64,000 bases of DNA. Source: Promethearchaeota archaeon (GTDB lineage Archaea > Asgardarchaeota > Lokiarchaeia > Sigyniarchaeales > SOKP01). The stretch is from positions 1 through 64,000 of the forward strand of contig JABXKD010000003.1 in assembly GCA_013375475.1 (NCBI GenBank), in the 5' to 3' direction. Below, piece after piece: positions 48,308-48,550 of this stretch. Position 1 is the first letter of the stretch. Every line of letters begins with the position of its first letter. The position numbers and the translations under genes are program-made. Below the pieces are notes generated by a model, which was not told the origin of the DNA, made no database searches, and worked only from the letters and a program-made list of their open reading frames with translations.

Positions 48308-48550
48308 TATATATAAGCATGGTTTAATTCTATGGTTACTGAAAATTTTGATTTTTGTTGGCAGTGGCCTTGGCGTTCCTGAAAACGCTTTTCATTGGCT
48401 AAACCATACTTTGCACTCTTTTTATTTCTAAACATCGAATTTTAAATTTCAATTGCATCTGCAATTGGGCATTATTAATATTGGGTTCCAATTTTAAAAT
48501 GAGACATCATATGAAGTAGATGATGAAATAATATAGAAAAGGAATAACAA
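48308..48550 (+). promoter_or_regulatory. trpB2 promoter/leader region with candidate attenuator
   Basis: TATATATAA 48308-48316; overlapping hairpins GCGTT/AACGC and TGAAAA/TTTTCA; T-rich tract ~48416-48429; dyad CAATTGCA-TC-TGCAATTG 48450-48467; SD-like AAAGGA before ATG 48551. Confidence 0.6.
48332..48382 (+). CDS. Putative Trp-rich leader peptide (TrpL-like) MVTENFDFCWQWPWRS
   Basis: ATG 48332 to TGA 48380-48382; TGG at 48359, 48365, 48371; 168 nt upstream of trpB2. Confidence 0.75.
   Translation: MVTENFDFCWQWPWRS

Follow-up and report, generated by a model that had tools for sequence, protein, structure and literature searches.

Introduction

In bacteria, leader-peptide attenuation is a textbook mechanism, which requires hairpin terminators as well as coupling of translation to transcription. 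Bacterial trpL, a ribosome-mediated transcription attenuator represented in Rfam by the family Trp_leader, operates through a switch between hairpins 1:2, 2:3 and 3:4. The trp regulation described in archaea is, to our knowledge, the work of DNA-binding proteins; TrpY of Methanothermobacter is a DNA-binding repressor of trp operon genes and of trpB2, and its action involves neither a leader peptide nor an RNA structure. Here, we analyze the region in front of a trpB2 gene in a 64,000-nucleotide stretch (the window; positions 1 to 64,000 of the forward strand of contig JABXKD010000003.1) of the genome of Promethearchaeota archaeon, a member of the Asgard archaea, which are the closest known prokaryotic relatives of eukaryotes. 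In this region, a short open reading frame (ORF) rich in Trp codons is enclosed in a predicted three-way RNA junction with helices P1, P2 and P3 and is followed by a T-rich tract. The evidence tips, if only somewhat, towards this element being the 5′ leader of the trpB2 mRNA that acts as a ribosome-mediated Trp sensor, an archaeal counterpart of bacterial leader-peptide attenuation.

The element has much in common with trpL. In both, trp biosynthesis genes are preceded on their own strand by a short leader ORF with several Trp codons near its stop codon, these codons form part of RNA helices, and a U-rich tract comes next; the expected logic (read-through when charged tRNA-Trp is low) would also be the same. 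They differ in that the Trp codons of the Asgard leaders alternate with other codons (W-x-W-x-W, two to six per copy), whereas those of trpL are arranged in tandem. The Asgard junction encloses the whole ORF, and no pair of mutually exclusive hairpins with a covarying antiterminator was found; the T-run is 12 nt away from the helix; RNA polymerase and termination factors are archaeal; the ORF has no Shine–Dalgarno sequence; and, in the window genome, the gene downstream is an orphan trpB2. An Rfam scan of the leader (positions 48278–48550) retrieved no family at E-values up to 10, Trp_leader and T-box included. In its proposed manner of working, the element is thus like a trpL attenuator, while standing outside that family. 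With TrpY control, it shares archaeal trp genes and trpB2 as targets, and a conserved stretch of the leader, box 2, might be bound by such a protein; unlike the TrpY system, it involves a leader peptide and RNA structure.

The TRAP system makes use of many G/UAG repeats plus a protein. The TRAP-binding trp leader of Bacillus subtilis has regular triplet repeats and is controlled by premature termination (PMC3913778). Regularly spaced repeated triplets in a trp leader are a feature that the Asgard element shares with it, and premature termination is also the mode of control proposed here. However, TRAP leaders have 9–11 G/UAG repeats, and the Asgard leaders have two to six UGG, located between start and stop codons of the same frame; moreover, the TRAP family PF02081 had no match in the window genome, while the control genome of B. 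subtilis matched. A TRAP-regulated leader was rejected on these grounds. A T-box riboswitch was also rejected, given the lack of an Rfam match in the leader and an in-frame start and stop that argue for translation. In the tryptophanase operon of E. coli (PMC8429421), a ribosome translating the leader peptide TnaC reports on Trp, and a translating ribosome would do the same here. TnaC responds to free Trp through a specific nascent peptide and turns a catabolic operon on, whereas the non-Trp residues of the Asgard peptides vary and the genes are biosynthetic. Cysteine-rich leaderless short ORFs are reported to act as attenuators in mycobacteria (bioRxiv 10.1101/834739). There, as in the Asgard element, an operon transcript begins with a short ORF rich in cognate codons, through which the ribosome would sense amino acid supply. 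The mycobacterial ORFs are bacterial and leaderless, with no three-way junction described for them in that work, whereas the Asgard element has a predicted 5′ untranslated region (UTR) of ca. 24 nt and would sense Trp.

A full-text literature search found no description of an amino acid leader peptide or attenuator in any archaeon, though most subscription journals lie outside its coverage and a prior report is possible; the original prediction, made from the sequence alone, knew of no characterized example in Asgard archaea. Upstream ORFs (uORFs) are said to act in archaea too, in a general statement that cites reviews (PMC10219788).

Results

A Trp-Rich Leader ORF Precedes an Orphan trpB2 Gene

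A check of the sequence confirmed the ORF that the original prediction had proposed upstream of trpB2, including its coordinates, peptide, stop codon and the positions of its three TGG codons, which fall within five codons (Table 1). A screen of the entire genome (288 contigs, 3.92 Mb; 32.5% GC; completeness estimated at 100%), covering either strand, yielded 38,854 ATG ORFs of 8–40 codons, of which only 16 have three or more TGG in five codons. Of the 16, 15 overlap a longer ORF (90 codons or more), and the one before trpB2 alone is intergenic. The Trp-rich leader ORF is real and far from a chance occurrence.

The assignment of the downstream gene to trpB2 was likewise borne out by profile searches: its product scored 630.8 bits with NCBIfam NF009057 (cut-off 366) and 580.8 bits with TIGR01415 (cut-off 518.85). 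It is separated from the leader ORF stop by 168 nt. No match to the TrpA, TrpE, TrpC or TrpF families was found in the window genome, while each of them was found in 14 of 14 control genomes. This trpB2 is therefore an orphan, the sole trp gene found in the genome, and its product probably serves in indole salvage.

The ORF Is Conserved in Frame

Among 41 related genomes, 36 have a TrpB2 orthologue according to a protein search. Thirty loci were fetched; 27 of them have an ATG ORF with at least two Trp codons 150–450 nt upstream of trpB2, and the remaining three have the same Trp cluster with a GTG or TTG start. A second collection provided 19 further records, mostly metagenome-assembled genomes of Promethearchaeota (Lokiarchaeial), ten of whose leaders were duplicates. 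In 38 unique leaders, the TGG cluster has a stop-free in-frame upstream ATG in 35 cases, while the other two frames give 2 and 10; with the upstream 120 nt shuffled, 0.16 in-frame ATG are expected.

A covariance model, R1, was built from a MAFFT alignment of 23 leaders of the genus. It matched the window genome once, with 99.7 bits, and, in a sample of 151 genomes of the order, it matched 74, all of them in family f1 (73 of 131 f1 genomes, 12 genera). The 86 R1 matches that were aligned comprise 81 distinct leaders. An in-frame ATG for the TGG cluster is present in 77 of the 81, compared to 4 and 10 in the control frames. The number of Trp codons is four in 31 leaders, three in 22, five in 14, two in 12 and six in 2, and the stop codon comes one or two codons past the last Trp in 65 leaders. 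Among ATGs at the conserved position, counted in any frame, 72 share the frame of the TGG cluster and five do not. The in-frame ATG is located 24 nt (43 copies), 27 nt (13 copies), 30 nt (15 copies) or 18 nt (one copy) from the TGG cluster, and therefore the length of the P2 loop shifts only by whole codons. TGG is retained, whereas the intervening codons specify a range of residues (R, Q, P, H, S, A, L, F, T, C), which argues against a conserved peptide function. However, Gln and Pro codons between the Trp codons, within P2, are almost always CAG and CCT; that they hardly vary indicates an RNA constraint acting on the same bases. The original prediction would have been abandoned had orthologues lacked an upstream Trp-rich ORF; such ORFs proved to be widespread.

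Trp-Rich Leader ORFs Stand in Front of trp Genes in Family f1 and in Other Asgard Families

The gene next to the 81 distinct leaders is trpB2 in 65 cases, trpD in 14 and neither in 2. The leader is thus always in cis, on the same strand and directly ahead of trp genes in 79 of 81 copies; one of the two exceptions is located at a contig end, and the other, L083, precedes unrelated genes. Four genomes have one leader copy before trpB2 and another before trpD-trpC, and in the two operons that were annotated, those of G118 and G125, a full trpD-C-F-B-A-E-G operon follows the leader. The presence of the same leader before both trpB2 and trpD operons is the strongest single argument for a tryptophan-specific regulator.

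The element spans at least 12 genera of one family, and varied forms of it are found in several further Asgard families. In families of the order other than f1, short ORFs end in W-A-W or W-P-W and are followed by a hairpin of unrelated sequence. In a phylum-wide sample, TrpB2 matched 138 of 201 genomes at E-values up to 1e-60, and 39 trpB2 upstream regions were fetched from other Asgard families. Eight of the 39 contain an ATG ORF with at least three TGG in ten codons; the reverse complements gave 0 of 39, and 200 shuffles gave a mean of 0.195 with a maximum of 2. In family f9, three members have a common short ORF ending in W-H-W and then a hairpin of the GGGTCC/GGACCC type. In two GC-rich f9 leaders, L161 and L165, no TATA-like box was seen by inspection between the short ORF and trpB2, which favours a single transcript there. 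In many of the remaining regions, trpB2 is located inside an operon, with no spacer.

Several individual loci deserve mention. L083 (G094:C17, leader 11062–11162, minus strand) is the third R1 match of one genome (62.4 bits), with ORF MKAINCLFSFWFFFWRF, P1 and P3; it lies ca. 330 nt ahead of a gene for a CxxCxxCC-domain protein and a BKACE gene, with no trp genes there, and may be a relocated copy, a decaying copy or a leader with a new target. In genus g13, the single trpB2 upstream region inspected, L044 (G043:C209, trpB2 at 1133–2533), contains neither short ORF nor junction and keeps a box 2-like stretch; in all three g13 genomes with an R1 match, the match precedes trpD (L102, L105, L108), a pattern implying that the leader is gained or lost per transcription unit. 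L079 and L080 (G053:C50) are two trpB2 genes situated ca. 15 kb apart on one contig, 77–78% identical to the query, each with a leader of its own of a different subtype, MATGNYYFWQWPWSWL and MATEKNTFWRWQWPWRF. An extra ORF is present between box 2 and trpD in L086 (50 amino acids) and in L093, L102, L105 and L108 (80–90 amino acids), with a common motif GPEK(S/N/T)K(T)A. The two copies that were scanned (L105 and L108) matched no Pfam family (best E-value 0.044); the product could be a trp-linked small protein or regulator. In L131/L132 (family f18) and L145/L146 (family f5), trpB2 is preceded by longer Trp-rich ORFs with a common N-terminus, MGFALT or MGLALT, which suggests common origin or a conserved 5′ RNA element.

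A Three-Way Junction Encloses the Leader ORF

Features of the leader are collected in Table 1. Most single-sequence folds of 22 genus leaders, judged by eye and uncounted, contain a three-way junction in which P1 encloses the whole leader ORF. The 5′ strand of P3 (48372–48377) begins inside the last Trp codon, the stop codon is located in the P3 loop, and the 3′ strand occupies positions 48384–48389.

Table 1. Features of the trpB2 leader in the window.
Feature	Position	Strand	Evidence and remarks
TATA box of the leader promoter, TTTATAAG	48278–48285	+	conserved position in leaders
P1 5′ arm, ATGGTTTA; pairs with 48400–48407	48319–48326	+	single-sequence folds; covariation
Leader ORF, 16 codons, MVTENFDFCWQWPWRS	48332–48382	+	start ATG at 48332; Trp codons 48359–48361, 48365–48367, 48371–48373; stop TGA 48380–48382; in-frame conservation
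P2 5′ strand, GGTTACTG, end of start codon and codons 2–4; pairs with 48362–48369	48334–48341	+	folds
P2 3′ strand, CAGTGGCC, within Trp-codon cluster	48362–48369	+	folds; pairing count
P3 hairpin, GGCGTT / loop CCTGAA / AACGCT	48372–48389	+	RNAalifold; covariation; flagged terminator-like
Single-stranded joiner, TTTCATTGG, consensus CAT-N-GG	48390–48398	+	invariant C, A and G columns
P1 3′ arm, TAAACCAT	48400–48407	+	folds; covariation
T-rich tract, CTCTTTTTATTTCT, T5 run 48419–48423, 12 nt after P1; proposed oligo-U termination site	48416–48429	+	enrichment after P1
Hairpin CAATTGCA ... TGCAATTG between T-tract and box 2	48448–48469	+	9-pair stem; conserved in genus
Box 2, GCATTA ... TTG..TTCCAAT, A/T-rich octamer, GA.ACA	48469–48506	+	sequence conservation
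Hairpin CATCAT ... ATGATG before ribosome-binding site	48505–48525	+	differing sequences at same place in several leaders; inspection only
Shine–Dalgarno-like AGGA of trpB2	48540–48543	+	AAGGA kept 8–11 nt before ATG in closest relatives
trpB2, TrpB-like pyridoxal phosphate (PLP) enzyme, 466 amino acids, proposed regulated gene	48551–49951	+	NCBIfam profile matches

In the 23-sequence genus alignment, 85.3% of cells are paired, against at most 47.4% with slid partners, and there are few compensatory changes. In the alignment of 81 distinct leaders, which was fitted to R1 and so biases pairing and covariation counts towards that model, 84.7% of cells are paired versus 77.1% in shuffled alignments (0 of 500 shuffles reach the real value), and the covariation score of 0.278 exceeds both that of shuffled alignments (0.152; again 0 of 500) and that obtained with slid partners (0.081 or less). 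Changes on both sides occur at 18 of 21 pairs. P1 is paired in 86.9% of cells, and seven of its eight pairs change on both sides, with exchanges such as GC 34, AU 29 and GU 9 at one pair and AU 50 and UA 15 at another. P3 is paired in 94.1% of cells, with compensatory changes at all four of its pairs. The weakest helix is P2, with 75.7% of cells paired, compared to at most 46% for the whole structure with slid partners. In other families, a hairpin of different sequence takes the place of P3. The leader combines a conserved position before functionally related genes with covarying helices, as one expects of a cis-regulatory RNA element.

The original prediction had envisaged a switch between two mutually exclusive hairpins overlapping the stop codon. 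The GGCGTT/AACGCT hairpin of this pair is present, with the stop codon in its loop, and is the only one that covaries. The expectation of a conserved short ORF with covarying hairpins across orthologues holds for the ORF, which is kept in frame, and for P1 and P3, and fails for the second hairpin. The predicted complementarity of TATGGTT, which contains the start codon, with AACCATA exists in the sequence, with covariation no higher than in shuffles: the alternative pairing of TGAAAA with TTTTCA and of the ATG region with AACCATA can form in 77% of cells of the 23-sequence genus alignment, at a covariation score of 0.049 versus 0.055 shuffled (410 of 500 shuffles reach it). An antiterminator helix between codons 3–5 and the joiner was rejected, its covariation not exceeding that of shuffles. 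Folding with the Trp region occluded, tried on 14 of 79 leaders, produced no recurrent new helix.

Promoter and T-Rich Tract

In most of 79 leaders listed, trpB2 and trpD types alike, a TATA-like octamer is located 33–37 nt before P1. At the usual archaeal spacing between TATA box and start, transcription would begin near positions 48307–48310, ca. 10 nt before P1, leaving a 5′ UTR of ca. 24 nt. The TATATATAA box (48309–48317), which the original prediction took to be compatible with a leaderless transcript, does exist; however, it is not the conserved promoter element, which is TTTATAAG at 48278–48285. Since TATATATAA is not conserved, a leaderless ORF is unsupported in family f1, and the position of the conserved TATA box speaks for a short 5′ UTR instead.

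The T-rich tract was found where the original prediction had placed it. A run of at least five T is present within 40 nt past P1 in 59 of 79 leaders, against a background of 0.28 in AT-rich windows of the window genome, and at least six T in eight positions are present in 75 of 79, against 0.49. In the following 40 nt, the corresponding numbers are 25 and 54 of 79. P3 together with the adjacent TTTCATT was flagged as terminator-like, but that U-run is not conserved; the conserved T-tract is the one 12 nt after P1. A role of the T/C-rich tract as an anti-Shine–Dalgarno sequence was rejected: in a duplex test of the tract with the 27 nt that immediately precede the start codon, with six leaders longer than 300 nt left out, energies were no better than those of the shuffled tract (mean z −0.02; 2 of 73 below −1.64).

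Proposed Mechanism

Sensing of Trp by the leader peptide is well supported by the comparative data set out above. Three further points are inferred: a ribosome translates the ORF, its stalling provides the signal, and regulation acts on termination. Transcription would start from the TATA box at 48278–48285, ca. 10 nt before P1, and a ribosome would translate the 16-codon ORF, whose Trp codons fall within P2 (3′ strand) and P3 (5′ strand) and whose stop codon is in the loop of P3. With abundant charged tRNA-Trp, the ribosome would finish and leave, the three-way junction would close, and transcription would end at the T-rich tract 12 nt further on, keeping trpB2 expression low. When charged tRNA-Trp is scarce, the ribosome would stall on the TGG codons and keep P2 and P3 open. 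Because the stalled ribosome would cover the P2 and P3 strands that contain the Trp codons, the junction could not close, the polymerase would read through, and trpB2 would be expressed; TrpB2 would then make Trp from indole in a salvage reaction.

Premature termination at the T-tract is the most likely output step, since the tract is enriched exactly there and its pairing with the ribosome-binding region is unsupported. U-tracts are, in addition, the archaeal termination signal: termination is described as a U-tract plus aCPSF1 (PMC8716108). We hold with slightly better than even confidence that Asgard archaea regulate tryptophan synthesis and salvage by a leader-peptide attenuator in which a three-way junction couples ribosome stalling to read-through of an oligo-U tract.

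A number of observations weigh against this mechanism. On the structural side, RNAalifold alone predicted P3 and neither P1 nor P2, the folding energy of the window leader is only mildly better than that of shuffles (z −1.76; 9 of 200 shuffles as good), and no covarying antiterminator or other alternative helix was found among the candidates tried. As for termination, the T-run is 12 nt from P1, unlike the adjacent U-run of bacterial terminators; archaeal termination is not known to need or depend on an upstream hairpin; and a termination factor needing free RNA would predict more, not less, termination upon stalling. As for translation, the leader ORF has no Shine–Dalgarno sequence upstream, and P2 takes in part of the start codon. 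Not all leaders conform: one clade has only W-x-x-x-W with a stop eight codons later, L040 has lost the middle Trp, 4 of 81 leaders have GTG or TTG instead of ATG, and the trpB2 orthologue L044 has no leader. Box 2, if a separate promoter, could let trpB2 be transcribed without the leader. Finally, RNA libraries (four metatranscriptome runs, available as contigs only, with small shares of 0.06–0.14) yielded one 151-nt contig, over 48266–48416 with one mismatch, that starts before the predicted transcription start; DNA or read-through is possible as its source.

Alternative Explanations

The same Trp sensor could have another output, acting on mRNA folding, stability or processing, or on access to the trpB2 ribosome-binding site, as in translational attenuation or eukaryote-like uORF control. 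All the evidence for a translated Trp-rich ORF counts equally for this possibility, archaeal termination is not known to depend on upstream hairpins, and a conserved leader portion of ca. 120 nt, containing hairpins and box 2, separates the T-tract from the start codon. We nevertheless consider it rather unlikely, for it leaves the enrichment of T-runs exactly after P1 unexplained; the tract pairs with the ribosome-binding region no better than shuffles do, no consensus structure downstream of the junction was found across the family, and trpB2 is so far from the ORF stop that direct coupling or reinitiation is improbable. Less probable still is an untranslated structured RNA, in which UGG repeats 6 nt apart and the junction would bind tRNA-Trp in the manner of a T-box, free Trp as a riboswitch, or a TRAP-like protein. 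Covariation of P1 and P3, sequence conservation of the CAT-N-GG joiner and of repeated TGGC units, the nearly fixed CAG and CCT codons in P2, which imply an RNA constraint on the “coding” part, and the absence of a Shine–Dalgarno sequence would all suit such an RNA. However, it has no need for an in-frame start (77 of 81 versus 4 and 10 in the control frames), for length changes by whole codons or for a stop so soon after the last TGG, and distant families, which differ in the surrounding sequence and hairpin, yet keep the in-frame ATG...W-x-W...stop. Nor was there a match to the TRAP family in the genome, or to T-box or any other Rfam family in the leader.

An arrangement in which the unit is a separate small gene for a Trp-rich micropeptide or a trans-acting small RNA, with trpB2 under its own box 2 promoter/operator and a protein regulator, appears quite improbable. 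It would account for the unit having its own conserved TATA box and a T-tract after ca. 110 nt and for box 2, which resembles a binding site plus an A/T-rich box and is conserved in sequence without covariation; a bacterial trp attenuator RNA and its peptide have been reported to act in trans (PMC6614838, PMC7298713). Yet the unit stays in cis, directly before trp genes on their strand, in nearly all copies, its non-Trp residues vary freely, inspection of family f9 shows no TATA-like box between ORF and trpB2, and a trans role would not exclude a cis role. An accidental short ORF in an AT-rich spacer, for which nothing but the small size of the ORF speaks, has a negligible probability: it is refuted by conservation across 12 genera and further families, and it would also have to produce the sole intergenic case in the genome, the in-frame ATG, the covariation and the 8 of 39 regions from other families against 0 of 39 in the control.

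If the attenuation mechanism proposed above is correct, the leader would be, going by the literature search, the first amino acid attenuator of such a kind in Archaea, and termination by archaeal RNA polymerase would be governable by nascent RNA structure and coupled translation. A conserved Trp leader ORF before trpB2 and full trp operons would show ribosome-based metabolite sensing in Archaea, and the leader would offer a natural test case of how RNA structure and a trailing or stalled ribosome act on archaeal U-tract termination, as well as a handle on functional transcription–translation coupling in the lineage nearest to eukaryotes. The physiology suggested for an orphan TrpB2 is indole salvage induced by Trp starvation where the rest of the pathway is lacking. 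A compact Trp-responsive element may also be of use as a genetic tool in archaea.

Other Features of the Locus and the Genome

Box 2 is kept in trpB2-type and trpD-type leaders alike, ca. 55–75 nt before the first ORF, and is conserved in sequence without covariation. It could serve as a second promoter, with an operator to which a protein regulator binds, or as an RNA site for protein binding. The strict box 2 pattern occurs in the window genome once outside the locus and the loose pattern five times, with the closest other loose match situated inside an RNA polymerase subunit gene. No box 2 regulon was found in this genome and, one strict-pattern match aside, no counterpart outside a coding region.

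The gene upstream of the leader and trpB2 encodes a Roadblock/LC7 protein. Downstream neighbours of trpB2 are a gene whose product has a weak, below cut-off match to CTP_transf_1 (cytidylyltransferase) and PyrI.

ARAGORN detected 29 tRNA genes in the window genome and no tRNA-Trp, despite the completeness rating of 100%; either tRNA genes are unassembled or introns were overlooked by the program. A scan of the same genome for intergenic short ORFs with at least four of six identical residues produced no His-rich ORF and none clearly linked to a pathway. In a crude scan, the sole Met/Thr-rich candidate was an intergenic short ORF, MMMMITLTTRTS (G000:C166:10651–10689, plus strand), located ca. 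300 nt before an ORF of ca. 118 codons.

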